A DNA stretch of 64,000 nucleotides from Abditibacteriota bacterium (GTDB lineage Bacteria > Armatimonadota > UBA5829), in assembly GCA_942493375.1 (NCBI GenBank), contig OW818698.1, positions 5,032,568-5,096,567 on the forward strand, written 5' to 3'. The position numbers and the translations under genes were made by a program. Of this stretch, positions 11,978 through 52,000 are shown piece by piece (within the stretch, counting starts at the first letter, position 1; the number at the start of each line of letters is the position of its first letter). Under the pieces are notes generated by a model. The model was not told where the DNA came from. It was given only the letters and a program-made list of their open reading frames with translations, and made no database searches.

Positions 11978-11982
11978 ATAGA

Positions 11983-12360: not shown

Positions 12361-12388
12361 GCATTGGGTATAGGAGGAAGGGAACTGT

Positions 12389-13072: not shown

Positions 13073-13088
13073 ACAGCCGAAGTAACGG
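13051..13088. terminator. Stem-loop overlapping the stop codon, between convergent genes.
   Basis: cgttacttcggctg ... cagccgaagtaacg inverted repeat. Confidence 0.4.
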
Positions 13089-13101
13089 TTCCGCAGCAAT
13101 C

Positions 13102-14106
13102 TCATTTCTCAATTATCAAATCGCGCATCAGGATATCATGGGCATTGGCAGGCTGGTTGCTGGGAAGTACCACATCCTTGTTCAGTAGTATTCCGAACCC
13201 GGTGCCGGCTGGGATTTGTACATCCTTACCAATTGCTGGCGTGATTTGCCTTTGGTCATATAGATAGCCCTCTCCTGCACCAAATACAGCTCCAACAAAC
13301 GGTTGACTCCCGAAAGTCTGACCAATCGCCAGCCCTGCTCCAGCTCCGGATGCTATAAACTGGTTATCCGTTCCCGAGTTAATGGTTCCCATAAGCCTGC
13401 TGGTTATCGGGTCCATTCTCACACTGTTTTCATCCAGGGCAGCCAACTGTCCCACAATTGGAATAGATACACCGTTTGGTAAAGTCGCTTTTACAAAGCT
13501 GATACCGATTTGCCCGGCAGTATTCAGTGATGCTCTCGTCACAGATCCTACTTTACCCATGAACACCGTATGTTGGGGAAATCCGATAGCACTTATATCC
13601 TTTTGATAAGCATAGAAACTGTCACCAACTTTACTTGTAGCAGAACTCAGAGTTCTATCCAAAGTGACCCTGATAACTGTGCCATTGGGAATTCTGGCCT
13701 GATCATTACTGAGCAACATAGGTTTGTATAGACTCATAATCCTGGGGATTATGGTGTTCAGTCGATTGATCCAGACATTAGCCAGTTTTTGAGGTGTCGT
13801 CTGATTTGCCCTGGCATCATCTGCAGTAACAGTCATGAAGAATTTATTGTCGGCGTAAATGTAGCAATCTGCACCGAATTTCGTGGTTGTGAACATCGGA
13901 GTATTACCACCGAATTGCATAAGGTCATTCGCACGCTGCTGAAGTTCTTTAACACGCTGCTCAATAGTGTAGCCACCTGCACCGTTACGTATAGTAAGAA
14001 CGGGGGAGTTAGCGAGCCACACCTGACGGCTGTCAATTGCCCATACTGTTGAATACATGCATATGGTTGCTAGAACCATGAAAGTAATCGCTACATGTCT
14101 TTTCAT
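13102..14106 (-). CDS. Secreted protein with a conserved N-terminal 'VWLANSP' module and a C-terminal glycine-zipper. Member of a four-paralog family in this window.
   Basis: The start was moved to the Met of MKRHVAITFMVLATICMYSTVWA (signal peptide, RBS ggag). The N-terminal domain is shared with 60640, 61759 and 62906. C-terminus ASGAGAGLAIGQTFGSQPFVGAVFGAG shows the GxxxG glycine-zipper pattern. Confidence 0.6.
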   Translation of the reverse strand: MKRHVAITFMVLATICMYSTVWAIDSRQVWLANSPVLTIRNGAGGYTIEQRVKELQQRANDLMQFGGNTPMFTTTKFGADCYIYADNKFFMTVTADDARANQTTPQKLANVWINRLNTIIPRIMSLYKPMLLSNDQARIPNGTVIRVTLDRTLSSATSKVGDSFYAYQKDISAIGFPQHTVFMGKVGSVTRASLNTAGQIGISFVKATLPNGVSIPIVGQLAALDENSVRMDPITSRLMGTINSGTDNQFIASGAGAGLAIGQTFGSQPFVGAVFGAGEGYLYDQRQITPAIGKDVQIPAGTGFGILLNKDVVLPSNQPANAHDILMRDLIIEK

Positions 14107-14340
14107 ATTCATACTCCATATGAAGGATCCACCCACTGTTTCCTTACTCCTATACATGGAGAAGAGTGAATCCAGTTTTTTACAACTCCAATGTCGTTTT
14201 TGTACGAAAGGAGATTGTTTACATATGCCAATAGTTAGGTGTGCCTAACTTATATATATTATCCCCAAGTCAGGAGGATAGGAAACCTATCATAAAGTCA
14301 AGGGGAATTGGTTGTGCATTTGTTAACTCTTCAGATAACC

Positions 14341-16941
14341 TTATGGTGTCATATCCTTCACATCTGCATTCTTCTGCTGCATTACAAGAGCGTTCACGCT
14401 GCGGGCCAATAGCATCTTGGGGATTTCAAACCAAACCACACTAGCAATTCCAGCTCCCACACAGGTTGCTGCCATTGCAGCATTCAAGTGTTTGAAACGG
14501 AAGATCTCGCGTAGAAATGGCACATACAGGACTAATCCCAGGAATACGAAAGCGCCGCCAACAACCCACCACATTGCTTGATTCTTAGAACGGAGAGTAG
14601 CAATAATGCTTCTTGACCATGATGCATTCGTTAATATGAGAGATATATTGGCGATTATCAAAGTCGTGAATGTCATAGTGCGGCAGTTTTTGTCATCCAG
14701 ACCAATATTCCGACCGATGATGAAGACTCCGAGGCACACAACTAATACACTCAATCCTTGCAGCATACTCATTATGACTGTGTGTTTGTCGAATATCGAT
14801 TCCTTCGGGTCGCGCGGAGGCCGTTTCATCACATTCGTTTCCCCTGGTTCTGCCTCGAAAACTGTAGAGCAAGCCGGGTCGATGATAAGTTCCATAAACA
14901 CAATGTGTATGGGAAGCAATATCAACGTCCAGTCAGCTATCACGGGGATTAGAGACAGACCTGCAATAGGTACGTGAACTGCAAATATGTAGGCCATTGC
15001 TTTACGCAGGTTATCGAATATCCTGCGTCCCATTCTGATCGCTGCAACGATCGATGAGAAGTCATCATCCAGCAGCACCAGTCCGGCAGCTTCACGCGCG
15101 ACATCGGTTCCTCGTCCACCCATAGCAACCCCAATATCTGAAGCTTTGAGAGCTGGTGCATCGTTAACACCATCACCGGTCATTGCAACAGTCTCGCCAT
15201 TAGCTTTGAGCGCCTGAACCAGCCGCAGCTTTTGCTCCGGCACTACTCTGGCGAAGACATTGACTCCTCCAATGCGTTGATTTAAATCCTCATCTGACAT
15301 CGCATTGAGCTCTTCACCGGAGATTATATGATCAGGATCTTTAAGCCCTATCTGTGTCGCAATATTGCGGGCAGTTGCGGGATAGTCTCCAGTGATCATT
15401 ACAACCCGGATACCTGCCTCATAGCACTCCTTCACAGCTCCTTGCACTGATGGACGCACAGGGTCAACCAATCCTACAAGGCCAATAAACTCGAAGTCGA
15501 AATCGTGCTGCTCTCCGGGGAGTTCATTTGATTGGGTGAAATGCGCTTTGGCTACACCCAGGACCCGGAGTCCATTCTCAGCCATTATTCCTATTTGAAC
15601 AGCGAGATCATTTTTCTGAGTGTCATTGAAGTGGCAAAGATCAGCTATAGCCTCGGGAGCGCCTTTGGTGGCGATAACGTAGTTCTCTCCCTTTGTAGAT
15701 TTCCATACGTGGGACATTGCCAGTAGTTCCTTAGACAAAGGATACTGCTGGACCAGAACCCAGTCCCCATGTATGTGCTCGGTTTGGGCCAGATGCTCTT
15801 CACCAAGTATGTGGAACGCCTTCTCCATCGGGTCGAACGGGTCACGCTGACTCGCTAATATACTGTATTCGATAAGGGCATGGAAGTCTTCAGGCAGAAC
15901 ATGCCCATCACCACTGATTATTGACAGGTGCTTGTTGTTTGCAAAAAGTTGCCCTACAGACATCTGGTTGAGTGTGAGTGTTCCGGTCTTGTCCACACAC
16001 AGGACAGTAGCCGAACCAAGTGTTTCTATTGCAGGCATTCGCCTGGTGAGTACATGCTTACGTGATATACGCCAGGCGCCAAGAGCTAGAAAAATCGTGA
16101 GGACTACCGGAAACTCCTCAGGTAATAGTGCCATTGCCAGAGCGACTCCAGCCAGAATGCCCTGTAACCAGTCTTCTCTGGTCAATCCGTAGGCAATGAC
16201 TACAATAGCGCTCATTGAACCACCAGTTATGGCCAGGTTGCGGACTAAGCGTGATGTCTGTTTTTCCAGCGAGGTTTTTTCTACAACAAGTGTCTGCAGG
16301 GATTTTCCGATCTTTCCGATCTCTGTGTTAATCCCTGTCCTCTGGATTTCTATCAGCGCCTGCCCCTGCACCACGAGTGTGCCTGAGAATACAAAGGGTT
16401 CGTCATCTCCACCAGGGCGCTGTATTGTCGAGTTCCCATCCCATTCACTCTTCCGCACGGGCATGGATTCACCGGTCAGCAGGGATTCGTCAACGGACAG
16501 GTTCAGGGACGAGAGCACTACTCCATCAGCCGGAACACGGTCTCCCTCTGAGATAATTACGGAATCTCCGCGCACAACTTCTCGGCCCGGTATTCGCTTT
16601 TCCTCACCACTACGGATCACACGTGCCCTGGGACTCGATAGATTCCTGAGGGCTTGAAGCGCATTCTCGGTCTTGCGTTCCTGATGAAGCGTGATACCTA
16701 TGACTACGAACACAAACCCCATCAGCAGAAGAGCTTCTTGTAAATCACCCAGCAGAAGATATATGATACCTCCGCCAACCAGCAGTAAAAACATCGGTTC
16801 GCGGATTACTTCGAATGCAATGGCAAAAATGCTGCGTGGTTTGGCCGATGGCAGCTCATTGGGGCCATCCGATTTTAATATTCTATCTGCATCATCGTGG
16901 GATAGACCAATAACATTCTTGATATCGAAGCCTTTTGCCAC
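14341..16941 (-). CDS. Cation-transporting P-type ATPase (P2-like).
   Basis: Phosphorylation motif CVDKTGTLT. Also VVMITGD and the hinge motif TGDGVNDAPALK. Cation-ATPase N-terminal domain. Length 866 aa with 8-10 transmembrane segments. Confidence 0.9.
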   Translation of the reverse strand: MAKGFDIKNVIGLSHDDADRILKSDGPNELPSAKPRSIFAIAFEVIREPMFLLLVGGGIIYLLLGDLQEALLLMGFVFVVIGITLHQERKTENALQALRNLSSPRARVIRSGEEKRIPGREVVRGDSVIISEGDRVPADGVVLSSLNLSVDESLLTGESMPVRKSEWDGNSTIQRPGGDDEPFVFSGTLVVQGQALIEIQRTGINTEIGKIGKSLQTLVVEKTSLEKQTSRLVRNLAITGGSMSAIVVIAYGLTREDWLQGILAGVALAMALLPEEFPVVLTIFLALGAWRISRKHVLTRRMPAIETLGSATVLCVDKTGTLTLNQMSVGQLFANNKHLSIISGDGHVLPEDFHALIEYSILASQRDPFDPMEKAFHILGEEHLAQTEHIHGDWVLVQQYPLSKELLAMSHVWKSTKGENYVIATKGAPEAIADLCHFNDTQKNDLAVQIGIMAENGLRVLGVAKAHFTQSNELPGEQHDFDFEFIGLVGLVDPVRPSVQGAVKECYEAGIRVVMITGDYPATARNIATQIGLKDPDHIISGEELNAMSDEDLNQRIGGVNVFARVVPEQKLRLVQALKANGETVAMTGDGVNDAPALKASDIGVAMGGRGTDVAREAAGLVLLDDDFSSIVAAIRMGRRIFDNLRKAMAYIFAVHVPIAGLSLIPVIADWTLILLPIHIVFMELIIDPACSTVFEAEPGETNVMKRPPRDPKESIFDKHTVIMSMLQGLSVLVVCLGVFIIGRNIGLDDKNCRTMTFTTLIIANISLILTNASWSRSIIATLRSKNQAMWWVVGGAFVFLGLVLYVPFLREIFRFKHLNAAMAATCVGAGIASVVWFEIPKMLLARSVNALVMQQKNADVKDMTP

Positions 16942-17544: not shown

Positions 17545-18225
17545 TCATATATTCGTGAAACGGGTTTTCTGTGCTGGGGGTTTCAATCTACCAATCTGTG
17601 TGTTCTTGCCGGTTTCGGTTACTACGAAGGTTCCTCTTCCACGAATGACCAACGTATTCATGAATACCCGATTTTGGTTCTCCTCAGACAGAACGGACTG
17701 GTCATTTAGTTGCAGAGCATGCTTTGTTACGGGTTCTGAGTTGCCCGATAACGTTTCTTCCTGCACTACCAGATTTATAGCTTCGGTTAAACGACCATCA
17801 GCGGGTATTGTTTCTCCGGCTTGTATTCTCACGATGTCTCCTGGTACCAGCTGACTGACAGCTAACTGCAGCAATTTACCTCCGCGTATTCCTGTGCATA
17901 CGCTGAGATACTGGCCCCCGGATGAGATCAGTGATTGCCTGTATCGTCTTTTCAAAACTGAAGACGCAATTATCATTACTACACTAAGAATAGCAAAGCC
18001 TAGCGCGAACAGCAGGTCATATTCAACTGCCAAAACGATTCCTATGGCTAAGCAGACCAAACCAGTTGATCTTACATGCTGGTAAAATAAATATGGACGT
18101 TCTAATTCGTTGGTCCCATATTTACGAAGACGATCATAGGCCTCAACCTCGGACAATCCATAGTCAGAGTCAGTTTTCAGATTCTTTAATATGTCTTGTA
18201 TTTCGGATTCCCCGCGGTTAAGCAC
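17545..18225 (-). pseudogene. N-terminal fragment of a second P-type ATPase (cation-ATPase-N plus actuator domain only).
   Basis: LSEVEAYDRLRKYGTNEL is the cation ATPase N-terminal domain. GETIPADGRL...LSGNSEPVTKH is the actuator domain. The ORF stops after 226 aa, before any DKTGT motif. The downstream sequence encodes an unrelated gene. Confidence 0.5.
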
Positions 18226-23215: not shown

Positions 23216-23845
23216 ATGAATGATTCTTCTAAGTGGTTCAAGAAATTACCAAACGAACTAGTAGTAGAAACCGTAATCGAAGAAGCACCAAAGATACTGG
23301 GCAAATGGAATCCAACCATATACAAGGATTCCGATTATGGATGTTGTATAAATACAGATAATTCCAGGATTCATATCGGTTGTAACCGTAATTATTTAGG
23401 CACTACTCTTAAATCACCAACTGAGACTGCTATATATGAGGACATTGAGCTGGACTCAGTGCTAGAGGCGCTTTTTCCGGAATTGCCGGATACAGTAACT
23501 AAGCCACGTTATTTATTTGCCAATTATGTAATTCCAAGCGAAGTTACAAGACATCTGAATCTGATTGCAGGATACTGTTATCCGTTACTTGATGGTGACA
23601 AGAATGCCTGGTTATCTTTTGAGAATTGGAAGATAACCAGGGGTGGCCGTATGAGAACACCTGGGCAAACAATCGAGGATCATCTTAGAGAGTTGAAGCA
23701 ACAAGCTGAAATTGCATGTTCAAGACGTAAATTTTGGACTGCGTTTGAATTTTATACAGAGTATAAAGATGCTGGGGGTAGAATGACTCTCAAAGACAGA
23801 TGGCATTTATACCTATTATCAAGACATACTTTTCTATTACGATAA
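23216..23845 (+). CDS. Hypothetical protein, AT-rich insert between paralogs 1 and 2.
   Basis: Clean 209 aa ORF, visibly AT-richer than the flanking genes. No recognised motif. Confidence 0.45.
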   Translation: MNDSSKWFKKLPNELVVETVIEEAPKILGKWNPTIYKDSDYGCCINTDNSRIHIGCNRNYLGTTLKSPTETAIYEDIELDSVLEALFPELPDTVTKPRYLFANYVIPSEVTRHLNLIAGYCYPLLDGDKNAWLSFENWKITRGGRMRTPGQTIEDHLRELKQQAEIACSRRKFWTAFEFYTEYKDAGGRMTLKDRWHLYLLSRHTFLLR

Positions 23846-28854: not shown

Positions 28855-31194
28855 TTGAAAACTATACTCTCGTTAATGCTAGCACTAATTGTATTGAGCA
28901 GTATCACCAACGCTGCACCGACTGCAAAGCTCAAATTGGTTGAAAATGGCAGGTCGGAGTATGTGATTGCTACAGCCGGGAATCAGATACCTGCTGAGAT
29001 TACAGCTTCAAAAGAACTGCAGGCATACATAAGTAAGTCTACCGGAGTGATGCTTCCGATTATCAAGGAATCTGAACTTAAGCCCGGCGCTCCGGCTGTA
29101 GTAGTTGGGCAGACAAACATTGCACGCTCTGCCGGGATCATCCCCAAAGGCTCTGAGCAGTGGGTTATTAAGACCATTGGTAACAAGCTGGTGCTTACGG
29201 GCGGTAGGCCGAGGGGAAGTCTATACGCTGTTTACCATTTCTTGGAAGATAATCTGGGTATCCGGTGGTGGACTATATGGGATGAATCGGTTCCGAAACA
29301 CGGCTCTATCATCCTGACTGATATCAACCGGTCCGGGCAGCCCACATTTTCATACCGGGAAATATTCGACTGCCTGATCCCCTGGCCTAAGGAGTTTTAT
29401 GCAAGAAATAGAGTCAATGGAGAGTTTTCGGGGATTCCTATTGAATATGGCGGGACTGTTATGTATGGTCCACCTTCTCATGTGCATACATTCAACAGGT
29501 ATTTCCCTCCAGAGGAGTATTTTGAAGCCCATCCGGAATGGTTCGCTCTTTCAAAAGGCAAAAGAGATCCCCAGGGGCAACTTTGTCTGACAAACACAGA
29601 ACTGTTCGATGCCTGGGTAGCCAAGATGAAGGGTTTTATAAAGACATCTTATGCAGCAGCAGATCAGAAAGGCATAGAGAGACCTGCATTCTTCTCGATT
29701 TCAGCAAATGACAGCCTGGGTGGCTGCGAATGTCACAACTGTAAAGCTATCATCGACAAAGAGAATGAGTCCGGGCTTTCACTGTGGTTCGTAAACAAAG
29801 TTGCTGATGAGATCCGGAAAGAGTATCCCGAAATACTGGTTGATACCCTTGCATACTGGTTTTATGTGGAAGCTCCAAAGACCATCAAGCCCCGGGACAA
29901 CGTGCGAATACGCCTGTGTGATTTTATTGAGGATATACTGCACGGGATCAATCATAATAACAACAAGGATGGTTTGAGGCGTTTAAAAGAGTGGTCAAAA
30001 ATCACCAAACACCTTGCTATCTGGAAATATGGGGTAATTTACTCTCCGAACCTTCCTACACCGAGCATGCTTTATTTCTCAGATGACGTCAAGACCTATA
30101 AAAAATATGGAGTCGAAGGCGTGTTCTTTGAGTTTGAATATGCGATGACTACTGATATGTGGGATATGAAGACCTGGATGTCAGCCAAGCTTTATGAAGA
30201 CCCGGATGCTGATTCCACTAAGCTGGTTAAGGAGTTCACCGATGGTTTCTACGGGCCAGCCGGTAAATATATCCGGGAGTATCTCAACGTAACGCATGAA
30301 GCTCTGCAAAAGATACCAAGCAGTATCAACTTCGGTGGAAATATATCAGGATACAACTTCCTCACGCTGGATGTCGTTCGCAAGTGCAGTGCTCTGTTCG
30401 ATAAAGCTGAGGCGTCTGTAACCCACAACCAGACGCTGCTGGACCGTGTTCAGTTTGCAAGAACATCCCTGGACAGGACAATCTGTTACAGGTATGCCAA
30501 CCTGCAGAAAGACTTCCGAAAAGCTGGCAGCAAGGGTGAGTTCGGACTGTCTGTTTCAGACTCAGCAATAAGAGCAGCTGCAATCCTGCGCAAAATAGCC
30601 GGTACAAGGTTCGCCAATTACCCGGATTCTGCAAAGGACGCATATGATCAAGCAACTGCCCTGGACCAGTACTCTTATATAACCAAGCCTGCCTCCTTGC
30701 CCAAACAGTTCGCGTCGTTGCCTGCAGACACAGTGTTCGACTACTCTCCGAACGCATTCCGTCTTGTAAGCACTCCGAAAATGACCAAAGACACCCAAGC
30801 AGCATATGGATTCGCAGCAATGATAGACGTGTCAGCTGCAGGTAAAGATACATCCAGATACATGATAACCCCGACTCAGGGAATGCCGATGGGCAGCTAC
30901 AACATCCAGGACAAAGTAGAATCCACACCAGCAATGATATTCCCAGACGATATCAAACCCGGTTACAATTTCTACAAGCTGGGCCTGGTCAAGTTCAAAC
31001 CGACAGAATATTTCTACCTCCTATGGAGCTGGACAATCCAACTGGACCTGACAACAGCCATGAACAACAACCCAAACCAGGAATACGAAGTCTACGCCTC
31101 AATAAAATTCGACGGTCCATCCTTCCCAAAAGGCAACCCATCAAAACCGGATTCGATTTGGGTAGATAGGATAATCGTGGTGCAGAAGCAGTGA
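28855..31194 (+). CDS. Secreted DUF4838/GH20b-like putative glycoside hydrolase, tandem paralog 4.
   Basis: TTG start after ggaggca. Signal peptide. Conserved core and GCECHNCKA motif. Confidence 0.65.
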   Translation: MKTILSLMLALIVLSSITNAAPTAKLKLVENGRSEYVIATAGNQIPAEITASKELQAYISKSTGVMLPIIKESELKPGAPAVVVGQTNIARSAGIIPKGSEQWVIKTIGNKLVLTGGRPRGSLYAVYHFLEDNLGIRWWTIWDESVPKHGSIILTDINRSGQPTFSYREIFDCLIPWPKEFYARNRVNGEFSGIPIEYGGTVMYGPPSHVHTFNRYFPPEEYFEAHPEWFALSKGKRDPQGQLCLTNTELFDAWVAKMKGFIKTSYAAADQKGIERPAFFSISANDSLGGCECHNCKAIIDKENESGLSLWFVNKVADEIRKEYPEILVDTLAYWFYVEAPKTIKPRDNVRIRLCDFIEDILHGINHNNNKDGLRRLKEWSKITKHLAIWKYGVIYSPNLPTPSMLYFSDDVKTYKKYGVEGVFFEFEYAMTTDMWDMKTWMSAKLYEDPDADSTKLVKEFTDGFYGPAGKYIREYLNVTHEALQKIPSSINFGGNISGYNFLTLDVVRKCSALFDKAEASVTHNQTLLDRVQFARTSLDRTICYRYANLQKDFRKAGSKGEFGLSVSDSAIRAAAILRKIAGTRFANYPDSAKDAYDQATALDQYSYITKPASLPKQFASLPADTVFDYSPNAFRLVSTPKMTKDTQAAYGFAAMIDVSAAGKDTSRYMITPTQGMPMGSYNIQDKVESTPAMIFPDDIKPGYNFYKLGLVKFKPTEYFYLLWSWTIQLDLTTAMNNNPNQEYEVYASIKFDGPSFPKGNPSKPDSIWVDRIIVVQKQ

Positions 31195-31281
31195 GATGGT
31201 GATACGACTTCGATTTTCTCGAATCTATGCAAGTAATAGAGCGAAACAATGGAAAAGTGTCAATAATATAGTACGAAAAAC

Positions 31282-31310
31282 TTGACATAATAATTGCCGA
31301 TGGACATAAT
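31282..31310 (+). promoter_or_regulatory. Near-consensus sigma70-type promoter for the AbiE operon, with a GACATAAT direct repeat.
   Basis: TTGACA at 31282-31287, a 17 nt spacer, then CATAAT at 31305-31310. GACATAAT occurs twice, 23 bp apart. Confidence 0.5.
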
Positions 31311-31321
31311 GAATAGAGAGT

Positions 31322-32068
31322 ATGCACTATAGGATTAACACTATGCAATCCACAAACATGGATAAAAAAGAGAGATCAGTTGCATCGCAAGTCAGGAAGA
31401 TTATCTCTCAGTCGCCTGATAGCATCTGGACTTACACGGACTTTCATGATTTACCGCTTATGGCAGTTAGTCAGGCTTTGTCGCGGCTCCATCGAGAAGG
31501 AATGGTAAAACGGGTAAGAAAAGGGCTTTATTATCACCCAAAACAGACTGTTTTAGGTGAAAGTAGTGTTTCACCCGTTGCTTTGAGTTCGAAGCTTCTT
31601 TCCAGCGATGCCCGGCCTACTGGATATACTGCTGCACGGGTGCTTGGGTTAAACACCCAAGTTCCAGTTGAGCCGTCCTATGCGATTTCCAAGACTAAAG
31701 CACCTGCAAGCATAGCTGGTGTAAAACTGACTGTCCGTCGTCCTTTACCAACTCTCCATATAAGCACACGTGAAGCTGCTATCCTGGAGTTTTTGCGTGA
31801 AAGAGGGGAGACAAGTGAGTTGTCTCCCGAGAAGACCGTTAAAAGACTCCTGGATATTGTCAGAGAAACAGGAATATTCACCAACCTTACCGAAGCATCA
31901 ATGCATGACCCCCCACGAGTACGGGCTATGCTCGGGGCATTGGGGGAGGAAGCTAATAATGAACAACGAGAACTGATGAAGCTAAAATTATCACTCAACC
32001 CACTATCCAGGTATGATTTCGGGAGATTGAAATGTTTGAAATACGCTAAGGAGTGGCAAGCAAAATGA
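31322..32068 (+). CDS. abiEi: AbiEi-family antitoxin / transcriptional regulator (type IV toxin-antitoxin or abortive-infection system).
   Basis: Size and sequence resemble AbiEi/DUF6088 antitoxins. Its stop overlaps the downstream gene start in ATGA. The true start may instead be the Met at 31343. Confidence 0.55.
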   Translation: MHYRINTMQSTNMDKKERSVASQVRKIISQSPDSIWTYTDFHDLPLMAVSQALSRLHREGMVKRVRKGLYYHPKQTVLGESSVSPVALSSKLLSSDARPTGYTAARVLGLNTQVPVEPSYAISKTKAPASIAGVKLTVRRPLPTLHISTREAAILEFLRERGETSELSPEKTVKRLLDIVRETGIFTNLTEASMHDPPRVRAMLGALGEEANNEQRELMKLKLSLNPLSRYDFGRLKCLKYAKEWQAK

Positions 32069-33042
32069 TGCTACATGAGCATGATGATTTTGGCCCGATA
32101 TTGACCGAAGCGACTGCCTGGCTAAGGGGAAAACCTGGTTTTGAACGTATTACTACTCAGATTGTAGAGAAAGATTACTATGTAACTCAAGTATTGCGTA
32201 TTATCGCAGCTAAGCTGGGTGAAACAGTCCTGTTCAAGGGTGGTACAAGTCTTTCAAAAGGTTGGGGATTGATCCAGCGATTTTCTGAGGATGTTGATCT
32301 TTTTTTGAATCCGAAAGCTTTTGATCCTCCATTGGGAGAAAGCAGAATACAAAAGAAACTGCTTGAAATGAGAGATATAGTTGGAGGTAGGCAGGGACTT
32401 ACCTGGCTGCGAAATGACTCCAGAGTTGATAAAAAATCACGTGCCGATGTGTATTCCTATAATGCTAAGTATGAAATTAATTCCGAGATACCATCTGAAG
32501 TATTGATGGAGGCGGGCGTCAGGAGTGGGTATTTTCCCAGTGTGCAGGTGAACTTGGATTCTTATGTGGGAGAGTTTCTACGCAGTAAAGGTTTGGATAA
32601 CATTGCTGAAGATATCAGTCTTTTTCCAATGATGTTGTTGCACTTCAAACGCACTTTTATTGAGAAGCTGTTCACAGTATATTCCAAGGTAGAACTGATG
32701 TTGAATCATAATGAATCGAGTCTTGGTGACAACGCTAGACATTACTATGATTTGGTTCAACTCGCACGTACACCGGAGGTTCAGGAACTGTTAAGATCAC
32801 CTTATGAGATAGCAGAGATCATCGAAAATTATTATGCAATTACTCAGAAGCATTTTCCAAAAAGTCCACTTCCTGACACACACCGTCTATGTGATAGCAG
32901 GGCACTTTTTCCGGATAAGGACCTTAGGCATATCTTGGCAAATGCATACAAAATACAGTGCGATAGGCTATGTTATACGTACAATTACCCATCTTTTGAT
33001 GAGGTTTTAGGTGAGTTTGAGAAGATGCGTGAGTTTATATGA
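32065..33042 (+). CDS. abiEii: AbiEii/AbiGii-family nucleotidyltransferase toxin (DUF1814).
   Basis: KGGTSLSK followed by RFSEDVDLF gives the GS...DxD nucleotidyltransferase motif. The ATG at 32065 overlaps the AbiEi stop. RBS aaggag. Confidence 0.65.
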   Translation: MMLHEHDDFGPILTEATAWLRGKPGFERITTQIVEKDYYVTQVLRIIAAKLGETVLFKGGTSLSKGWGLIQRFSEDVDLFLNPKAFDPPLGESRIQKKLLEMRDIVGGRQGLTWLRNDSRVDKKSRADVYSYNAKYEINSEIPSEVLMEAGVRSGYFPSVQVNLDSYVGEFLRSKGLDNIAEDISLFPMMLLHFKRTFIEKLFTVYSKVELMLNHNESSLGDNARHYYDLVQLARTPEVQELLRSPYEIAEIIENYYAITQKHFPKSPLPDTHRLCDSRALFPDKDLRHILANAYKIQCDRLCYTYNYPSFDEVLGEFEKMREFI

Positions 33043-33130
33043 TTATCGCAATAAAATAAAGTATGTATGAAAACAGTATCGCCGTGTATTACCTGAATGG
33101 GCTATATTTCAGTTTTCGAAGGGGGATGAC

Positions 33131-35398
33131 TTGATGTCACTTGAAATAACCGTAAATGGCAAATCTGAATACGTAATCGCTGCCTCAGAGGACCAGATTC
33201 CATCTGAAATTACAGCATCAAAGGAATTGCAGACATACATAGCCAAATCCACCGGAGCAACGCTGCCGATTGTCAATGAATCGGACATAAAGCCGGATGC
33301 ACCAGCTATATTAGTTGGACGAACAGATTTTGCTAAGTCTGCCGGACTAATCCCCGATGGAGAAGAGCAGTGGGTTATTAAGACTATTGGCAACCGGTTG
33401 GTCCTCACAGGGGGCCGTCCGAGAGGCACTCTGTATGCTGTCTATCACTTCCTGGAAGACCATCTGGGTGTGCGGTGGTGGACTATATGGGATGAGACTG
33501 TTCCCAACCATAGCAGCTTATCAATAGCAGATACCGACCGTTCGGGTGAACCGGGGTTTGCTTACCGGGATATATATGATGCCGAGGTCCCATGGCCCAA
33601 AGAGTTCTACGCACGGAACAGAGTCAACGGCCACTTCTCGTTTGTTCCATGGGAGTATGGCGGGACTATCCAGTATGGTCCTCCTCACCATGTGCATACA
33701 TTCGACCACTACTTCCATCCGGACGAATACTACGATACCCATCCTGAGTATTTCTCCCTGTCCAAAGGCGAACGCATCCGCAATGGCCAGCTCTGTCTCA
33801 CTAACAAGGATGTATTCAAAGAGTGGATAGCTAAGATGAAGGAATACATCAAGACTTCATATGCTGAGGCAGACAGTAAGGGCGAACCCAGGCCTGTTTT
33901 CTTCTCGATCTCCCAGAACGATTGGGAAGGCAGCTGCGAGTGCGACTGCTGCAAAGCTATCTATGAAAAAGAGAACCACTCCGGGCTCTCATTAATGTTC
34001 GTAAACGCTGTCGCAGCAGAGATCGAAAAGGAATATCCCGAAGTCCTGATCGATACCCTGGCATACTGGTTCTACGAAGAAGCTCCCAATTCTATCAAAC
34101 CGCGGGACAACGTAAGGATACGGGTTTGTGATTTTGGTGAGGATGTCATGCATCCTATTACCCACGAAAACAACAAGCAGGGCCTCAGAAGACTGGGTGA
34201 ATGGGCGAAGATCACCAAACACACAAACATCTGGAAATACGGGGTCATATACTCTCCGAACCTGCCTATCCCCAGCCAGTTGGACTATGCCGAAGATGTC
34301 AAAGCATACAAAGCTAACGGTGTAGAGGGAGTATTCATAGAGCTGGAAAACATAATGACTACAGACATGTGGGAGATGAAAGCATGGATGCTGGCGAAGC
34401 TCTACGAAGACCCGTATGCTAACTCCGAAGCCCTGGTAAATGACTTCACCAACGGTTACTACGGCCCCGCTGGCCTCTATATCCGTGAATACCTAAATGC
34501 AACACACGATGCCTTGCAGAAAACTCCAAGCTATATAAACTTCGGAGGGACTGCATCTAAGTATTCCTATATAACTTATGACCTGATCCGCACCTGCAAC
34601 GCAATATTTGAAAAGGCAGAAGCTGCTGTATTGGGTGATGAATTCCTATTAGACAGAGTCAGGATGGCCAGAACATCAGTAGACAGGGCAATCTGTTACA
34701 GGACAAAAGACCTTGTGAATGAGTATGAAAACGGCGGAAGCAAAGGCGATTTCGGCCTTTCGGTGGAAGTCTCATCCAAGAGGGCATCTGCCATACTCCG
34801 CAAAATATCTGATCTCAGGTTTGGTGATTGTCAAAAACACGCGCGAGATGGATATGACCAGGCAGGTGTGCTTGAAATGGTCTCCAGCCTACCAGTATCA
34901 GTCCCGCTGCCTGAACAGTTTGCAGCAATGCCAAAGGACAATGTCTTCGATTTCTCCCCCAAAGACTTCAGGCTGGTTGGCCCGATAGTAGTCAAAGACC
35001 CTGGAGCTGACTTCGGAGCTGCTGCCAAACTGGACTACGTAATGTCCGGTTCAGATGCAGCGAAGTTCATAGTATCAGAAACAGAAGGCATGCCGATGGG
35101 CCTCTGCAACGTCAGCGAACACGTATTCGGGGAGACCAGATACATTAAACAGGGAGACATCAAACCTGGATACACCTACTACAAACTCAATAAAGCCAAG
35201 TTCCACCCGTCCGAGTATTTCAACATGTTCTGGGACTGGACATTGCAGCTGGACCTGACCCCAACAATGAATGAAAACCTCGACCAGGAATACGAAATTT
35301 ACGCATCCATAAAATTCGAAGGACCTTTGTTCTCCAACGGAGAACCAGCAAACACGAATGGGATATATGTGGAGAGGATAATAGTTGTTCGAGTCTAG
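33131..35398 (+). CDS. DUF4838/GH20b-like paralog 5, N-terminally truncated (no signal peptide). Possibly non-secreted or a decaying copy.
   Basis: Begins LMSLEITVNGKSEYVIA, which aligns to residues about 26 onward of paralog 4. An in-frame TGA lies 21 codons upstream. No hydrophobic leader. The core is intact. Confidence 0.55.
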   Translation: MMSLEITVNGKSEYVIAASEDQIPSEITASKELQTYIAKSTGATLPIVNESDIKPDAPAILVGRTDFAKSAGLIPDGEEQWVIKTIGNRLVLTGGRPRGTLYAVYHFLEDHLGVRWWTIWDETVPNHSSLSIADTDRSGEPGFAYRDIYDAEVPWPKEFYARNRVNGHFSFVPWEYGGTIQYGPPHHVHTFDHYFHPDEYYDTHPEYFSLSKGERIRNGQLCLTNKDVFKEWIAKMKEYIKTSYAEADSKGEPRPVFFSISQNDWEGSCECDCCKAIYEKENHSGLSLMFVNAVAAEIEKEYPEVLIDTLAYWFYEEAPNSIKPRDNVRIRVCDFGEDVMHPITHENNKQGLRRLGEWAKITKHTNIWKYGVIYSPNLPIPSQLDYAEDVKAYKANGVEGVFIELENIMTTDMWEMKAWMLAKLYEDPYANSEALVNDFTNGYYGPAGLYIREYLNATHDALQKTPSYINFGGTASKYSYITYDLIRTCNAIFEKAEAAVLGDEFLLDRVRMARTSVDRAICYRTKDLVNEYENGGSKGDFGLSVEVSSKRASAILRKISDLRFGDCQKHARDGYDQAGVLEMVSSLPVSVPLPEQFAAMPKDNVFDFSPKDFRLVGPIVVKDPGADFGAAAKLDYVMSGSDAAKFIVSETEGMPMGLCNVSEHVFGETRYIKQGDIKPGYTYYKLNKAKFHPSEYFNMFWDWTLQLDLTPTMNENLDQEYEIYASIKFEGPLFSNGEPANTNGIYVERIIVVRV

Positions 35399-37563: not shown

Positions 37564-37989
37564 ATGTCTGATGTTGATTCTTTCAGAGCAGCAATTAAAA
37601 GGGCTTTCGTATTAGCGCCTGAATTATCTGATGAGGATTCTGCTCGAATACGTAATGCTGTTAAGGACAAATACACTAATAATAATCGTGGATTACTATG
37701 GGAACGATTTCAAGAATATATAGGCAAACGACGTGTAGATGGATGGAAGAGAGCGTGCGAATATCCTGCAGAAGAAAAAGTTATCCTTTTCCTAGATGAG
37801 CGTGAAGGTGAAGTCATGTGGCTTTTCGAGAATGGTAACGATCTTCGCACGGCAATAGGTGAAACATCCAATGAGGAGTTCTATCTTACTGATTATGATA
37901 CGAGTTATGTGATAGCTTTTAGCCATCACGACATTTTATATGGAGTTGGCTCGTGTAGATCATGGCTTGAACTACTGAGTGAAGATTGA
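37564..37989 (+). CDS. Hypothetical small protein (AT-rich).
   Basis: Clean 141 aa ORF. No known motif. Confidence 0.4.
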   Translation: MSDVDSFRAAIKRAFVLAPELSDEDSARIRNAVKDKYTNNNRGLLWERFQEYIGKRRVDGWKRACEYPAEEKVILFLDEREGEVMWLFENGNDLRTAIGETSNEEFYLTDYDTSYVIAFSHHDILYGVGSCRSWLELLSED

Positions 37990-45324: not shown

Positions 45325-48267
45325 CTATTCGTAAATCCCCAACTCACTGATCTCCGGATAGTCCCATCCCTTGTGACTCTTGCGCTGGGTGACGACTACT
45401 ATGCGCAGTTTGTCGGTTGTTACCTTTTCACCGGAATACTCGACTTTCTGCAGAAGCTGGTTTCGCCACTGGTGGATTGTCTTCCAATCACCATCTTTCC
45501 AGATTTGCAGGTCAGCATCTTTGATGGTCGGGGTGATCATCTCCACACGGCTGAATGTCACAGGCTCCTTGAATACTATCTGACAGTAACCCCGTTCTGC
45601 ATAGACAGGAAGCCAACCGGCTGCATCGTTAGCACCGTCTGCCAGGTCATCATCGCTGCTGAAGTCTGTTCCGAAATCACCAGCAGCCCATTTGATCTTC
45701 TTGTTTGCCAGTAGATTGCCGGCTTTTACCGGTCGATCAAGTGCCGATGCAATCTCCTGCGTGATCTCATCGACAGTCTTCAGATTAGGCAGCACTTCGC
45801 AGCTGGTGTAGAGGTGCGCGCCGATACCTTCAAAGGTATCAGTGAACTTGCCATTAACCACCGGAATCACCCGGTTTTCACGCACGACCAGAAGATGGGT
45901 AACATTGTCCTTTGCCAGCGCTGGGATATCGAATGTTGCAGTCTTTGCATCATAACTCTGGTTGGCGGTAATGATGTATGTCTGTGCATTTTCAGATAAC
46001 TTTACATGTTTTGCGAGGACATCGACATCGGGATTGTCGCTCTTTGCTTCGGTCGCAGAGTCACGCTCAAGCCATGCAGGGGCCAGCAGTGTAAGGTCTT
46101 CAAAGATATAGTCCATCGCAATGCGGTTTTCCAGATGGTTCCAGTAGCCATTGAATATGAACGGCACAATCCCCTTGGCTCCGGTGGCCATTGAGGCGTA
46201 AACGAACCAGCGGGATTCCTTGAATGTTGGGTTCTGGCCTCGTGCACCGCCGTAACTGAATGTCTGCGGCATTGCCCACATAGCCTTGCTGCCATCGTTT
46301 GCTGCGCAGCCATCGACCATATTGTTGTGGATAGACCGCATCGGGCTTCCAAAAGAGCGATTCCCTTCCTCATCCAGCATTGGGCTCATGTAAGGATGCG
46401 GACACATGACATCACATGCCTGCATATACTCCACCGGAGAGCGCGAAACTATCTTACAGAACCTGTATGGGTCTTGCTGCGCAAGAAAATCGTAAACGCT
46501 CTGCAAAAAGACCGGTGAAAGTCCACGGCACTCCGGTTCGTCCGAAGTGTAGTAGCCTATCACATTGCGGTTCATTCTCGTTTTCGCTATTACCTCGCGG
46601 AACTTGGCTTTGAGCTGATCATCTATTGGCTGATCGAGTTTTGCCTTAGCCTCATCAATCTCTCTCGAAACATCAACAAGGGTATACAGCCCCATATTGC
46701 TGGTTTCATAATTGCTGGCACCCATCATGAAGTTGGTGGAGTGGGGGAGTTGTGCTATCGGGAATGATGAGTTTCCGACCATATAAGCCATAGAACCATA
46801 CCACCCGCGGATAAAGACCGGACTGCCGTTTATAATCAGATTACCTTGATCATCGATCCGTGACTCAATGGCAGGAGCTGAAGCCAGTTTGCGCAGAGAT
46901 ACTTCTTTTGCGAATAGAACATCGAATTTTGCTCCATTCGGTTTGGGATTTGCGACGGGCTGCAGCACTTCAGCAAGTAATACATAACTTCCTTCGGGCA
47001 GGTCTGCTGCCGGAAGCTCGAAGGAAACTGTTGTGTCATTTATCTGAGATTCTGTCATCTTCGAGGGTATCAGCGAAGAGGATAGCGTGACGCGTGCAGT
47101 AGCGCCTTTCACTTTCTCCAGAGGCATACCGAGTGAGATGTTGCCTTTGATAGTGTTGATAGTCTGGGTGGCATAAATAGTGTTCCGATAGTTTGGCTGG
47201 GTGACTTTCACGGTAATAGGAGTGTAACTGAGCCAGGAGTCAAACCGGGTAACCAGCGCCGGGATTTTGTTCTGCATTGCCCGGAAGATGACCGGCCACT
47301 TGCCTTCTTCTTTTACAAAAGCTTCAGGGAGTGTGATCCGCGTCTTGCTATTTGCATCCAATTTCAAAGGCATCTCGCAGCCTTTCGCGCCCGGGACAGC
47401 AATCTCCATCGACAGCGTACCATCGAACACTTTGTCACCGCGATTTTCAACCATCAGCGACGGAATCACAGTAAAGCCGACATCTTTGGGTTCCAGCCGG
47501 AAAGCAGGAGATTCGGCATACAGATTGTATCTGGATTTATCTATCTTAATGCCTTCCAGATATCCGTAGTTCTTGATGTTGTTATATCCATATCCGGGGC
47601 TGTATTGCGAGTAGTAGTTGTTGGGAGTGACCGAGCGTGTGCGTGACATTGAAAAAACCCATCGGTCAGCCCACATTTTCGACGGACGGTTGTGGAACAG
47701 TGCGAAGGGGATGGCTATCTCAACTGACCAGAAATCCTTGCCGATGAAGGTCGCTGTTTTCCAGTCAGAAGACCATCCGGCTTTGCCTGTATTCCCGCCT
47801 TCTATCATGTAAAGGTCTACTTTTGTCCCTTCGGAGTTTACTGTCAGCTGGTAATACTGGTCCCGGTCACCAACAGGATCAACGAAAAGTTCAACATCGT
47901 CATCCGACCACATCGCTGCATCGTGTATGCGTGCTGCCTCAACTACTAGCTTGGATGGATTAGGTTCGTTGCAGCGGATGCCAAAGTAGAGGTTCTCGTC
48001 GTCATAAAGCACTCGAAAGGAGGTCTGTGTCTCCTGTGGGATAGGTTTGCGTTCACCGGCTCCCAAAAGTGTCTCAAACCCGGTCTGCAGTGGAGCTTTA
48101 TCCCAAGCCTTTTCATCGATCTTTCCATCAATGACCAGTTTTCCCTGCAGCTTAGCAGCAACCGCAGATTTCATAGGCCCGGGAGGATCAGCAGCAAAAG
48201 CAGGAAACACTGACAATACATACATCACCAGCGACAACAGCAACAGCAACCTGACAGCAAATCTCAT
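45325..48267 (-). CDS. Large secreted protein with an N-terminal CBM9-like carbohydrate-binding domain, putative glycoside hydrolase.
   Basis: Start moved to MRFAVRLLLLLSLVMYVLSVFPAFA (RBS aaggagag). DGKIDEKAWDKAP...LYFGIRC is CBM9-like. Confidence 0.55.
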   Translation of the reverse strand: MRFAVRLLLLLSLVMYVLSVFPAFAADPPGPMKSAVAAKLQGKLVIDGKIDEKAWDKAPLQTGFETLLGAGERKPIPQETQTSFRVLYDDENLYFGIRCNEPNPSKLVVEAARIHDAAMWSDDDVELFVDPVGDRDQYYQLTVNSEGTKVDLYMIEGGNTGKAGWSSDWKTATFIGKDFWSVEIAIPFALFHNRPSKMWADRWVFSMSRTRSVTPNNYYSQYSPGYGYNNIKNYGYLEGIKIDKSRYNLYAESPAFRLEPKDVGFTVIPSLMVENRGDKVFDGTLSMEIAVPGAKGCEMPLKLDANSKTRITLPEAFVKEEGKWPVIFRAMQNKIPALVTRFDSWLSYTPITVKVTQPNYRNTIYATQTINTIKGNISLGMPLEKVKGATARVTLSSSLIPSKMTESQINDTTVSFELPAADLPEGSYVLLAEVLQPVANPKPNGAKFDVLFAKEVSLRKLASAPAIESRIDDQGNLIINGSPVFIRGWYGSMAYMVGNSSFPIAQLPHSTNFMMGASNYETSNMGLYTLVDVSREIDEAKAKLDQPIDDQLKAKFREVIAKTRMNRNVIGYYTSDEPECRGLSPVFLQSVYDFLAQQDPYRFCKIVSRSPVEYMQACDVMCPHPYMSPMLDEEGNRSFGSPMRSIHNNMVDGCAANDGSKAMWAMPQTFSYGGARGQNPTFKESRWFVYASMATGAKGIVPFIFNGYWNHLENRIAMDYIFEDLTLLAPAWLERDSATEAKSDNPDVDVLAKHVKLSENAQTYIITANQSYDAKTATFDIPALAKDNVTHLLVVRENRVIPVVNGKFTDTFEGIGAHLYTSCEVLPNLKTVDEITQEIASALDRPVKAGNLLANKKIKWAAGDFGTDFSSDDDLADGANDAAGWLPVYAERGYCQIVFKEPVTFSRVEMITPTIKDADLQIWKDGDWKTIHQWRNQLLQKVEYSGEKVTTDKLRIVVVTQRKSHKGWDYPEISELGIYE

Positions 48268-48763
48268 CGGAACTCTCCTTGCAAATACACCAGATATATC
48301 ATACGAGAAAACATTCGGCATTCAATGCTGTTATTGTGTAATATATGCTCCATATTGTCAATTATTGGAACCCAGAACCCAGGAGTCAGGAGACAGGAGA
48401 CAGAATCTCGTCATCCTTAACTTGATTCAGGGCCTAGAAATCCACCCACCCATTCCCCCTCGTCAGAGGGTCAGGGGGATTGATTCCCTTCACAAATCGC
48501 ATATATATGTGCTAACCGTGTGAGATGAGATGCATCGGTATCAGAGCGAAGGGGGTACAGGTTTCCGCTAACCACAACCCATCGCCCCTTAGCGCCGATG
48601 CCGATGCACAACCTCTGCCGAAGAGCCACACCAGTTCCCCCTTCTCCAAAATCTAGAGAAGTTTAGAACTCCCCCAATTTGGGCAGAAATGTATTGTTGT
48701 GAATACTATGTCTGTAAGCATATTGTTGATATACACATCAAGTGCACTATGGAGGAGATAAAA

Positions 48764-49065: not shown

Positions 49066-52000
49066 CTACTCTTTACATCTCTCAATAATAACCACAGCAG
49101 CGTCATCTGTCAGGTGTCCCCCACTGAAGTCCAGCGCAGTTTTGAATAGCGCTTCCAGGGTATCGGCGGGTGAGTTGCTGATGCAGTTTTCCAATAAAAG
49201 ACATATACCATCGGTGTTGAGCATGGAAGAGCTATTGTGCGATTCACTTATTCCATCGGTGTACATAACCATCTGGTCACCAGGAGCAAGATGGGATTTG
49301 TCGAGTGTATAATCACCATCATTTACAACTCCAATCGGAAATGAACCACTATTCAATAGCTCAACATCACCCGCTGACTTTTTGACCATAACCGTTGGGT
49401 GTCCTGCACTTGAGTAAGTGAATCCACCTGTTTCCGGATCAAGCACAGCCAGGAACGCTGTTGCGAACCGTTCATAAATGGGACTCTGGATTATGACTGT
49501 GTTTGCATGGTTGAGTGCCTGTGCAGGGTCTCCCATATCGTATGCAAATGCGCGGACAGTGCTCCTGGTTGCAGCGGCCATTGCTGCAGATTCTATCCCC
49601 TTGCCCGAGACATCCCCTATCAGTATGGCGGTCTTGCCATCTTCCGTTTCAAATACATCGTAAAAGTCTCCGCCAACCTGCTTACCTGCGGCGCCGGGAA
49701 TGAATCTGGTAGCTAACTGGTATCCGGGAGTTATATGCGGGTCACCAGGGAGCAGCGCCTGCTGGAGCATACTGTGATCCTCCGCTAATAATTTACGGAT
49801 TACCTCTGCATCGAGTTTTGCCTGGTGTTCAGCTTCGAGGAGACGAGAGGCTATAAGAGCCAAAGATACTGCAAGGCCCATCTTGTGAGCGCATTCTATG
49901 TCGTCATCTGCAAATTCGACGAGTTTAGCTGTGCTTACAAGTGAAAGGACTCCAAGCAATTCCTTTCCCGCTATCAAAGGTATGCCAAGGATAGATCGCA
50001 TACCATATTCGTCGCACATTTCAGAACTGATCCTGACATCTGACCTGGTATCATTTATAGCTGTGGGTTGAATCGTTTCAGAGACAAGCACATGGTATGG
50101 TGCCTGCTCTGCAGTAAACTTCAGTCCAGGGGAGAGCTTTGCTTCGTTAGAAACGTATCGCACTACCCAGAGACCATCCTCATTCACAGTGATCATGCCC
50201 AGGTCAACACCAACAGCTTCAGCAGCTTCTACCAATACAGCGTGCATGACACTATCGAAATCCATAGTGGAGCTGATTGCTACGTGGATAACATTGAGCG
50301 CCCGGCTCAAACTTTCACTCCTTAACAACGCTGTTTCCAGGTGCTTTGGTTTTGTAATATCACTGAATGTGATTACAACACCGTCAATAACATTGTCCAG
50401 GGTCATATAAGGCATGATGCGCATGATAAACCAACGCCCGTCAGTGCTCTCTACCTGGCATTCCTGTACTGAAAGCGTGTCTAGTGCACTAAGGACATCA
50501 TGCTCAATAGTGTCATATTTCAAGTTCTGAGTGATATCAGTTATCGGCCTTCCAATATCTATAGAGCGGATGTTGAAAGTTCCAACTACAGCTGGTGTAA
50601 ACATCTTGATGCGTAGGTCATTATCAAGGAATATAGTAGCGACCTGTGCGCCGTTCATCAGGTTGACTATGTCGTTTTTCAAAGCGGTTACATCGTCAAT
50701 TCTCGATTTGAGTTCCCCATTGAGTGTCATCTGCTCTTCTTTGGATGTTATCAGCTCTTCGTTGGTGCTCCGAAGCTCCTCGTTTGTTGACTGGAGTTCT
50801 TCGTTGGTCGATTTCAACTCCTCAGAAGTTGATTCCATCTCCTCCAGCGTAGTTTGCAGACGTTCTTTTGTAAACTCAAGTTGCTGTTCAAGCTCCGAGT
50901 ATCTGGCTTCAGGTTCACCTGAAAGCTGTGTGGTTATCTCTGCAACCTCAGGAGTTTCCACATCATCAAATGCTACGACGAATAACTCACTTGAACCTAC
51001 TGGCCGGGGTAATGGGCTTATAGTTACATCAACCTTCTGATAGCTGCCATTAGTCTTTACATTCAAAGCTTTGAGAAATACGATGCTTCTGTTTGCAGCT
51101 GACCTGCGTATTGCATTTGGTAGTTCCAGCTTAAGTCCTTCGCGGGCCATTGCTCCTACGTTCCAGTTTGCTTTTCCCTCAGCCGGTTCCAGATACTTAC
51201 CAGTCTTTCCACTAATTAGCACAATGTCTCCATCTGCAGCTACTACAACAGATGGAGGGGCGTATCTTTCAAGAAGCGTCTTTTGCAGCGCTTCTTTTAC
51301 ATCCATTATGGCGTATTTTTCCAGGTCCTCAAATTTTGGTGTCTCAACAAGAGGAGCACGGAATGGGATACTCATTAAGCGTGTCTGGTTTGCAGTGGTT
51401 TCTTTGCGTCTGAAGATTTTCCACTTCTTTTCGATGGTGGCAAACAACTCATCCAGGCTGCCAATGTCTTCCACCGTTCCCATAAATAGAATACCATCCG
51501 GGCTTAATGAATAATGGAAGATAGGAATGACCTTTTTCTGCAGTTCGGGGTTAAAATAAATCAACAAGTTCCTGCACGAGACCATATTCATTCTTGTAAA
51601 TGGAGGATCAGCTGTCAGGTCTTGACGTGCAAAAACTACTGTATCACGGATCAATTTCTTAACCGCGTATCCACTTTCTGTCTGGTTAAAGAATCCATGC
51701 AGGCGTTCCGGTGATATATCATTCGCAATTTTTGCCGGATAGAGTCCTTTTCGGGCTACTTCTATTGCTCGCTCGTCGATATCCGTGCCGAATATCTGCA
51801 GCTTGATTGCCGCATTTGGTCGCAATCTATCAAGACATTCACGCAGCAATATAGCCAGCGAATATGCTTCCTCGCCTGTTGAGCAAGCCGGCACCCAGAC
51901 TCGAATTGTACCTTCCAGAGGAGCGTTCTTTACCAATTCAGGGATAACCTTGTCCTGAATATAATCAAATGCTTTAGGATCCCTGAAGAACTGGGTTACT

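Follow-up and report, generated by a model that had tools for sequence, protein, structure and literature searches.

Gene content of the locus

The 64,000-nucleotide stretch of contig OW818698.1 from an Abditibacteriota bacterium (assembly GCA_942493375.1), referred to here as the window, contains a tandem array of five genes encoding proteins with the DUF4838 domain (PF16126), which start at positions 20772, 23904, 26389, 28855 and 33134. All five paralogs matched PF16126 with E-values of about 1e-75 to 1e-80; DUF4838 is the catalytic domain of the glycoside hydrolase families GH163 and GH185 (PMC10570127). Between paralogs 4 and 5 lies a two-gene cassette (Table 1), which a first-pass annotation, made from the sequence alone, had described as an AbiEi/AbiEii toxin-antitoxin module whose insertion had probably cost paralog 5 its 5' end. 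The position within the array was borne out by the map of open reading frames (ORFs) and by Pfam, and the identity of the module by Pfam, PADLOC and fold evidence on both proteins; the deletion was not supported. Taken together, the results make it very likely that positions 31258-33042 represent a self-contained and probably functional AbiE module of the DUF6088/DUF1814 type, inserted late and in this lineage only, and that paralog 5 was already leaderless at that time.

Identification of the antitoxin and toxin genes

The predicted antitoxin matched the Pfam model DUF6088 (E-value 1.3e-6, 28.7 bits, against a curated cutoff of 25) and, over residues 19-213, the PADLOC model AbiEi (E-value 1.7e-31); its homologs gave matches to AbiEi_4 and AbiEi_3_N as well. 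The predicted toxin matched Pfam AbiEii (PF08843; E-value 7.5e-26, 92 bits, cutoff 22.5) and, over its full length, PADLOC AbiEii (E-value 6.7e-55). The DUF6088 and DUF1814/AbiEii hidden Markov models (HMMs) named in the first-pass annotation thus both supported family membership; in NCBIfam neither protein has a model. The toxin contains the motif FKGGTSLSKGWGLIQRFSEDVDLF, that is G-G-T61-S62 ... D76-x-D78, the signature of Pol-beta-type nucleotidyltransferases, within a stretch reading FKGGT61S62LSKGWGLIQRFSED76VD78LF. This motif had been given as 'GS...DxD'; the nucleotidyltransferase signature is indeed present, but there is no literal GS dipeptide, the residues being GGTS...EDVD. In an alignment of 37 homologs K58, the GGTS at 59-62, D76 and D78 were invariant, and the toxin has S74-E-D76-V-D78. 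Its FKGGTSL...RFSxDxD aligned with FKGGTSL...RFSTDLD of MenT4.

Searches of the PDB by sequence alone, with the single proteins and with family profiles, returned no significant match for either protein, the lone marginal one being to the GGTS...DxD stretch of MenT4 (E-value 0.37), and a comparison of folds was therefore needed. An AlphaFold2 model of the toxin (predicted local distance difference test, pLDDT, 95.6) gave as best Foldseek matches MenT4 (6y56), TglT/MenT3 (6j7n) and 8xhr, with E-values of about 1e-5, probability 1.00 and TM-scores of 0.50-0.62. For the antitoxin model (pLDDT 87.7) the best matches were Rv2827c (1zel, E-value 5.6e-6) and AbiEi of Streptococcus agalactiae (6y8q, E-value 1.4e-5). 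All remaining matches had E-values above 0.1 and were to generic Pol-beta cores in the case of the toxin and to generic winged-helix regulators in the case of the antitoxin. The two co-directional ORFs are joined by a 4-nt ATGA overlap (32065-32068), as had been annotated and as is typical of translational coupling in such bicistronic operons, and the same kind of antitoxin was encoded directly upstream and on the same strand at 162 of 166 loci encoding relatives of the toxin, drawn from genomes and metagenomes. Given the HMM matches of both proteins and the restriction of the fold matches to that family, the cassette is, as judged from sequence and modelled structure, a genuine module of the AbiE/MenAT family.

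The start of the antitoxin gene was set at ATG 31343 rather than at 31322, as the most likely start, since the close homologs are all 241-242 aa long and align from the second ATG of the window (31343), since the closest of them have AAGGA, GAGGA or GGAG 7-9 nt upstream of the start, at the place matching the AGGA of the window, and since the exact 241-aa product (P0244) is present in the public protein collection, from the same contig. The toxin starts at 32065 (325 aa, P0123), and paralog 5 starts at ATG 33134 (754 aa, P0001), as in its orthologs, and not at TTG 33131.

Table 1. Position and properties of the features between and including DUF4838 paralogs 4 and 5; coordinates refer to the window.
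Feature	Position	Strand	Properties
DUF4838 paralog 4	28855..31194	+	779 aa, signal peptide; PF16126 E-value 1.4e-79; upstream neighbour of the insert
Left junction	31195..31257	.	63 bp, from paralog 4 stop to module
Candidate AbiEi operator	31258..31287	+	30-bp imperfect palindrome TGTCAATAATATAGTACGAAAAACTTGACA; right arm contains the -35 box
Sigma-70-type promoter	31282..31310	+	TTGACA, 17-nt spacer, CATAAT; 11/12 consensus positions
Shine-Dalgarno-like AGGA	31332..31335	+	7 nt ahead of the antitoxin ATG; read from sequence
abiEi-type antitoxin/repressor gene	31343..32068	+	241 aa; DUF6088 subfamily; N-terminal winged helix and C-terminal domain
abiEii-type nucleotidyltransferase toxin gene	32065..33042	+	325 aa; DUF1814/PF08843
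Right junction	33043..33133	.	91 bp, from toxin stop to paralog 5 ATG; ends in Shine-Dalgarno-like GGGGGA
DUF4838 paralog 5	33134..35398	+	754 aa, no signal peptide; PF16126 E-value 6.9e-75; intact, conserved

The leaderless DUF4838 paralog and its orthologs in related lineages

Paralog 5 is without the first 24-25 residues of its siblings, and its maximum N-terminal hydropathy was 0.42 compared with 3.1-3.7 for the hydrophobic leaders of paralogs 1-4. An in-frame stop is located 21 codons upstream of its start, so that the late start (by about 25 codons), the upstream stop and the missing hydrophobic leader reported in the first-pass annotation were all confirmed. The protein begins 2-3 residues past the predicted cleavage site of its siblings (the end of the ...AA leader motif), which argues for a clean removal of the leader and not for a random truncation. 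Its ratio of nonsynonymous to synonymous substitution rates (dN/dS) was 0.07-0.10 at a dS of 0.51-0.59, the same as for paralogs 1-4. The nearest named DUF4838 relative, with 54% identity, is from a Verrucomicrobiota metagenome-assembled genome (MAG).

While a first scan of genome contigs with paralog 5 identified no relative, a search with the same protein gave three proteins of 754 aa that cluster at 90% identity, the contigs of which led to three related lineages, referred to here as relatives A, B and C. Relative A, represented by loci L002-L006 from four samples, is syntenic with the window at 82-91% nucleotide identity and has no cassette; paralog 4 is followed by a 188-bp spacer and by a 754-aa paralog 5 that starts with MSLDIT and has a GGAGGA Shine-Dalgarno motif and a TAA stop just upstream. 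Between the window and relative A, homology is lost at 31185, at the end of paralog 4, and picks up again precisely with the start codon of paralog 5 (ATG 33134). In relative B (L007) a 754-aa paralog 5, also starting with MSLDIT, is found 51 bp after an unrelated ankyrin-repeat gene, and in relative C (L174) paralog 4 is followed by an inverted-repeat element of the type seen in relative A and then by two small ORFs; again, neither has the cassette. The paralog 4 orthologs were 86.6% (relative A) and 89.1% (relative C) identical to that of the window in nucleotide sequence, and the 754-aa paralog 5 orthologs 87.6% and 89.1%, with the same start codon (MSL[D/E]IT). With the other paralogs as outgroup, the window shared seven derived residues with relative B and one with relative A, and relatives A and B shared none; because this groups the window with relative B, the cassette is absent from both the sister and the outgroup lineage. 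The toxin was alone in its 90%-identity cluster in a collection of about 15 billion proteins, in which paralog 5 has relatives of at least 90% identity in several samples. The nearest cassettes, with 71-74% protein identity, are located in unrelated contexts, one of them in an Armatimonadota MAG.

The insertion proposed in the first-pass annotation was thus upheld, as one specific to this lineage, by the comparison with related genomes, the cassette being absent from three related lineages, but in the same comparison paralog 5 was leaderless at the identical start codon where no cassette is present. The insertion did not remove the signal peptide, since the gene is equally leaderless in relatives that lack the module. 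As indicated by the start shared with the cassette-free orthologs and by a dN/dS equal to that of the secreted siblings, the leaderless form is old and selected: it predates the insertion and has been kept by selection, and paralog 5 was presumably a cytoplasmic DUF4838 glycosidase before the module arrived. From the alignments, the window lineage alone acquired a module of about 1.8 kb in the spacer that separates paralogs 4 and 5, where the module replaced the inverted-repeat element and left the flanking genes intact.

The inverted-repeat element is G/C-rich and about 110 bp long with 27-nt arms (ATTCCCCCTTTGAAGGGGGGTTAGGGG...), and was located at L003 5835-5943, L002 12369-12477 and L174 ~2725-2835. 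In relatives A and C it adjoins the end of paralog 4, where the window holds the cassette; the element of relative A was searched for in the window and was absent there. It may be a repetitive extragenic palindromic (REP) or miniature inverted-repeat transposable element (MITE)-like sequence, or a terminator. The two small ORFs of relative C (L174 2913-3751) are paralogous, encoding 158 aa and, cut by the contig end, at least 124 aa, and the products of both start with M..F.TDLS..ECLER. Relatives B and C may be one lineage, in which several genes have been inserted between paralogs 4 and 5.

Extent of the module and its junctions

The nearest cassette (locus L008, 72% identical in DNA) is homologous to the window over exactly 31258-33042, a stretch bounded by the start of the palindrome described below and by the stop codon of the toxin gene, and the span of 31282-33131 originally annotated is corrected to this conserved unit. 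Neither junction matched other cassettes, the left one having no detectable homology to them, and neither was significantly similar to the spacers of the relatives. An apparent 26-nt junction match and other short similarities to the spacers of relatives A and B were dropped, being no better than those obtained with shuffled sequences. The surroundings of the cassette were searched for terminal repeats and target-site duplications, and only short repeats at chance level were found; there were no mobility genes either. Downstream of the toxin gene no terminator-like site was found, and the predicted RNA fold of the right junction was no more stable than those of shuffled sequences (z 0.61). GC content at third codon positions (GC3) was 0.37-0.41 for the cassette compared with 0.45-0.54 for the paralogs, composition being weak evidence of foreign origin and divergence in codon usage being confounded by gene length.

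The locus of the nearest cassette, in which the toxin is 74% identical to that of the window, also contains (L008 1-7114) a second, convergent AbiEi_4/AbiEii pair, an AEP-TOTE protein, a methyltransferase and an HTH_17 protein, a content that gives it the look of a defence or mobile island.

Promoter and candidate operator

The near-consensus promoter that had been annotated as the cassette's own (TTGACA, 17 nt, CATAAT) proved to be the best promoter-like site of the region. The pattern TTGACA-N17-nATAAT occurs once in the window compared with 0.14 occurrences expected, and TTGAC and CATAAT hold their position in the four closest cassettes (L008, L009, L010 and L014) with a 17-nt spacer (18 nt in L014) of diverged sequence.

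Overlapping this promoter is a palindrome that is conserved throughout the family. Its consensus, TGTCAAGTTTTTTTGCAAAAAAACTTGACA, was matched with no more than 10 mismatches by 117 of the 121 non-redundant regions upstream of homologous modules; in shuffled controls the best match had 12 mismatches and the mode was 16. The arms are 0.83-1.0 conserved per position, the right arm being the -35 box, and in the position matrix of the family a -10 box (nATAnT) follows 17 nt past the -35 box. Modules with this palindrome span Cyanobacteria, Planctomycetota, Actinomycetota, Acidobacteriota, Armatimonadota and other phyla. The window copy keeps the outer arms TGTCAA...CTTGACA, with a core diverged to TATAGTAC that is common to the window and its closest relatives L008, L009 and L014. 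Characterised AbiEi and Rv2827c bind inverted repeats overlapping their own promoters (PMC7319586), and it is this precedent together with the family-wide conservation that makes the palindrome a credible candidate operator. No earlier description of this operator was found, as DUF6088 is barely mentioned in the searchable literature.

The direct repeat that the first-pass annotation had called consistent with AbiEi operators is not a credible operator. The two copies of GACATAAT begin at 31284 and 31303 and are 19 bp apart, not 23 bp as annotated, the latter figure being the start-to-start distance of the -35 and -10 boxes. Among dinucleotide shuffles of this spacer, 8.6% contained an exact direct repeat of at least 8 nt within 30 nt, and the repeat is therefore not above chance; it was sought in the four closest cassettes and was absent from all of them.

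A second TATAGT, inverted relative to the TATAGT of the operator core, is present near the Shine-Dalgarno motif (window 31326-31331) and also in L008 (~405-412); it is not conserved in L009, L010 and L014. In much of the DUF6088/AbiEii family (L015-L173) the palindrome begins about 59 nt before the antitoxin ATG and the -10 box ends 6-7 nt before it, and this short distance suggests that the antitoxin mRNAs of these modules are leaderless. The subclade of the window differs in that its leader measures about 26 nt and includes a Shine-Dalgarno motif; for the window module the predicted transcription start is at about 31317.

Alternative explanations

The leaderless gene directly downstream of the insert, with an in-frame stop upstream of its start, could be explained by an insertion that cut about 25 codons off the 5' end of paralog 5 and left a leaderless, possibly crippled gene. 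This is very improbable, considering that in two cassette-free lineages the orthologs agree with it exactly in length and in start codon, that substitution rates in paralog 5 equal those of its intact siblings, and that its start just past their cleavage site amounts to a clean removal of the leader. A leaderless start common to the window and relatives A and B does imply that some upstream event predates their split, and the spacer behaves as a rearrangement hotspot, with an inverted repeat in A and C, two small ORFs in C and an ankyrin gene in B. On this basis the cassette could be ancestral, having entered before the three lineages split, possibly removing the leader, and having later been lost precisely from A and from B/C. 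We regard such a history as improbable, if somewhat less so than truncation, because on the tree ((window, B), A) it requires at least two independent clean losses instead of one gain and is unparsimonious. Moreover, the spacers of A, B and C showed no detectable remnant of the cassette, no toxin of at least 90% identity was present in the collection, and the inverted-repeat element beside paralog 4 is shared by A and C and missing from the window, which identifies the spacer of the window as the derived one. A late insertion beside an already leaderless gene thus remains the preferred reading.

With regard to function, the module might be an inactive relic in which the genes are intact and toxicity or regulation has been lost. 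Chromosomal toxin-antitoxin modules often decay and the operator palindrome of the window has diverged from the family consensus, yet both ORFs are full length, every family-invariant residue of the toxin is retained, and the same diverged core, TATAGTAC, is carried by the closest cassettes, for which reason it is better seen as a subfamily variant than as decay; we consider inactivity unlikely. It is very improbable, in turn, that the antitoxin binds the two GACATAAT direct repeats: they are exact 8-mers overlapping the -35 and -10 boxes, but their actual spacing, their frequency in shuffled sequences, their absence from the closest cassettes and the fact that known AbiEi-family operators are inverted repeats (PMC7319586) all speak against such sites.

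Several points weigh against a functional, lately inserted AbiE module. Homology to characterised systems is remote (12-15% identity, with no PDB match by sequence alone), and what is said of toxicity, of neutralisation, of DNA binding and of phage defence is inferred. MenT4, the top fold match of the toxin, is reported not to use the phosphorylation route considered below. The palindrome of the window is degenerate, with 10 of 15 pairs formed and 10 mismatches to the consensus, and taken alone is not above chance; use of sigma-70-type promoters is assumed for the host, resting on Shine-Dalgarno motifs and promoter conservation. As for the insertion, relative B has paralog 5 in a different gene context, the rooting depends on eight informative sites, and the junctions match nothing, so that the exact edges of the cassette and the mode of insertion are not fixed.

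Relation to characterised systems and proposed function

The module resembles AbiE of S. agalactiae and of Lactococcus lactis pNP40 in being bicistronic with the antitoxin first, in having an imperfect inverted repeat, the candidate operator, at the promoter, in the winged helix and C-terminal domain of the antitoxin (fold match to 6y8q), and in a DUF1814 toxin with GG[TS]...DxD and a Thr at the phospho-acceptor position. It differs in that its proteins are only 13-15% identical to those of AbiE and its antitoxin belongs to the DUF6088 subfamily, and in that the candidate operator is a single 30-bp palindrome on the -35 box, whereas S. agalactiae AbiE has two 23-bp repeats 3 bp apart (PMC7319586). 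The best folds for both proteins and the same gene order are found in MenAT4 (Rv2827c/Rv2826c) and MenAT3 (Rv1044/Rv1045, TglT/TakA) of Mycobacterium tuberculosis. Unlike the window module, Rv2827c uses four inverted repeats with negative cooperativity, and for MenA3 no operator has been detected; MenT3 and MenT4 are neutralised by different routes.

A working model can be drawn from S. agalactiae AbiE and M. tuberculosis MenAT (PMC3985639, PMC7319586, PMC10435456, PMC11375011, bioRxiv 10.64898/2026.01.19.700257). By analogy, the winged-helix domain of the antitoxin would bind the palindrome and block RNA polymerase at the -35 box, resulting in negative autoregulation. Nucleotidylation of tRNA 3' ends by such toxins, and their antitoxin-induced auto-phosphorylation at a Thr or Ser structurally equivalent to T61, have been described (bioRxiv 10.64898/2026.01.19.700257, PMC10435456, PMC11375011). 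Free toxin in the present organism would likewise add nucleotides to the 3'-CCA ends of tRNA, blocking aminoacylation and translation, and the antitoxin, once bound to the toxin, might neutralise it by causing it to auto-phosphorylate the conserved Thr61 of GGTS. In Escherichia coli, S. agalactiae AbiE failed to protect against 32 coliphages (bioRxiv 10.64898/2026.01.19.700257); a phage-defence role of the window module would be suggested by the family name alone. As there is no terminator after the toxin gene, read-through is plausible, and the module promoter may by now drive transcription of paralog 5 as well.

The DUF4838 array can be likened to GH163 (BT1035) and GH185 (Sp_0475) by the PF16126 domain, which all five genes carry. 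A precedent for leaderless, presumably cytoplasmic proteins is a GH185 cluster of 252 sequences without signal peptides (PMC10570127). The array differs from these examples in the length of its proteins (about 780 aa) and in that the leaderless copy stands in tandem with four secreted paralogs.

Other features of the window

Several gaps of the array vary by lineage. Between paralogs 1 and 2 (window 23216-23845, plus strand) a 209-aa ORF with a GC3 of 0.31 had no match in Pfam, NCBIfam or PADLOC, and relative A has three minus-strand genes (MarR, isochorismatase and MFS) in its place. A small DUF6756 ORF is present at 37564-37989 (plus strand; GC3 0.275), where relative A has an 829-aa GH123 gene at the corresponding position. 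A sixth, more distant DUF4838 protein is encoded at 5515-7740 on the minus strand, within a glycan-utilisation region (73-14157 and 45325-48321) that includes GH123_N (73-1185), GH20 (1248-4103, minus strand), LacI (4455-5441), MFS (10628-11977) and a CBM9 protein (45325-48321, minus strand). Upstream of a full-length P-type ATPase gene (14341-16941, minus strand) is a 226-aa ORF (17545-18225, minus strand) whose only match was to the N-terminal third of such an ATPase and which is probably a fragment of a gene. A 1274-aa fusion of CheB methylesterase, CheR methyltransferase, PAS, GAF and SpoIIE phosphatase domains is encoded at 49066-52890 on the minus strand.

Significance

The notion of a mobile toxin-antitoxin module truncating a secreted enzyme is refuted for this locus, which cannot be cited as a case of insertion-driven relocalisation. 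What the locus does provide is a cleanly delimited, solitary toxin-antitoxin module inserted in a tandem gene array without any mobility gene, and evidence of an array that keeps one presumably cytoplasmic copy beside four secreted DUF4838 glycosidases.

We tentatively suggest, as a possibility somewhat short of even, that DUF6088-type AbiE modules cross phyla as complete operator-promoter-antitoxin-toxin units, in which the candidate operator doubles as the consensus -35 box, so that one repressor-operator pair could serve any host whose polymerase is of the sigma-70 type; that the TATAGTAC core, to which the subclade of the window has changed the inner half of the palindrome, might insulate the present module from cross-talk with other AbiE copies; and that paralog 5 may sit under toxin-antitoxin autoregulation. 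The module itself is a further member of the well-known AbiE family, and the operator palindrome and the cytoplasmic copy are modest points. For AbiEi antitoxins of the poorly described DUF6088 subfamily, a palindrome that combines a candidate operator with the -35 box across phyla could aid the annotation of such modules.

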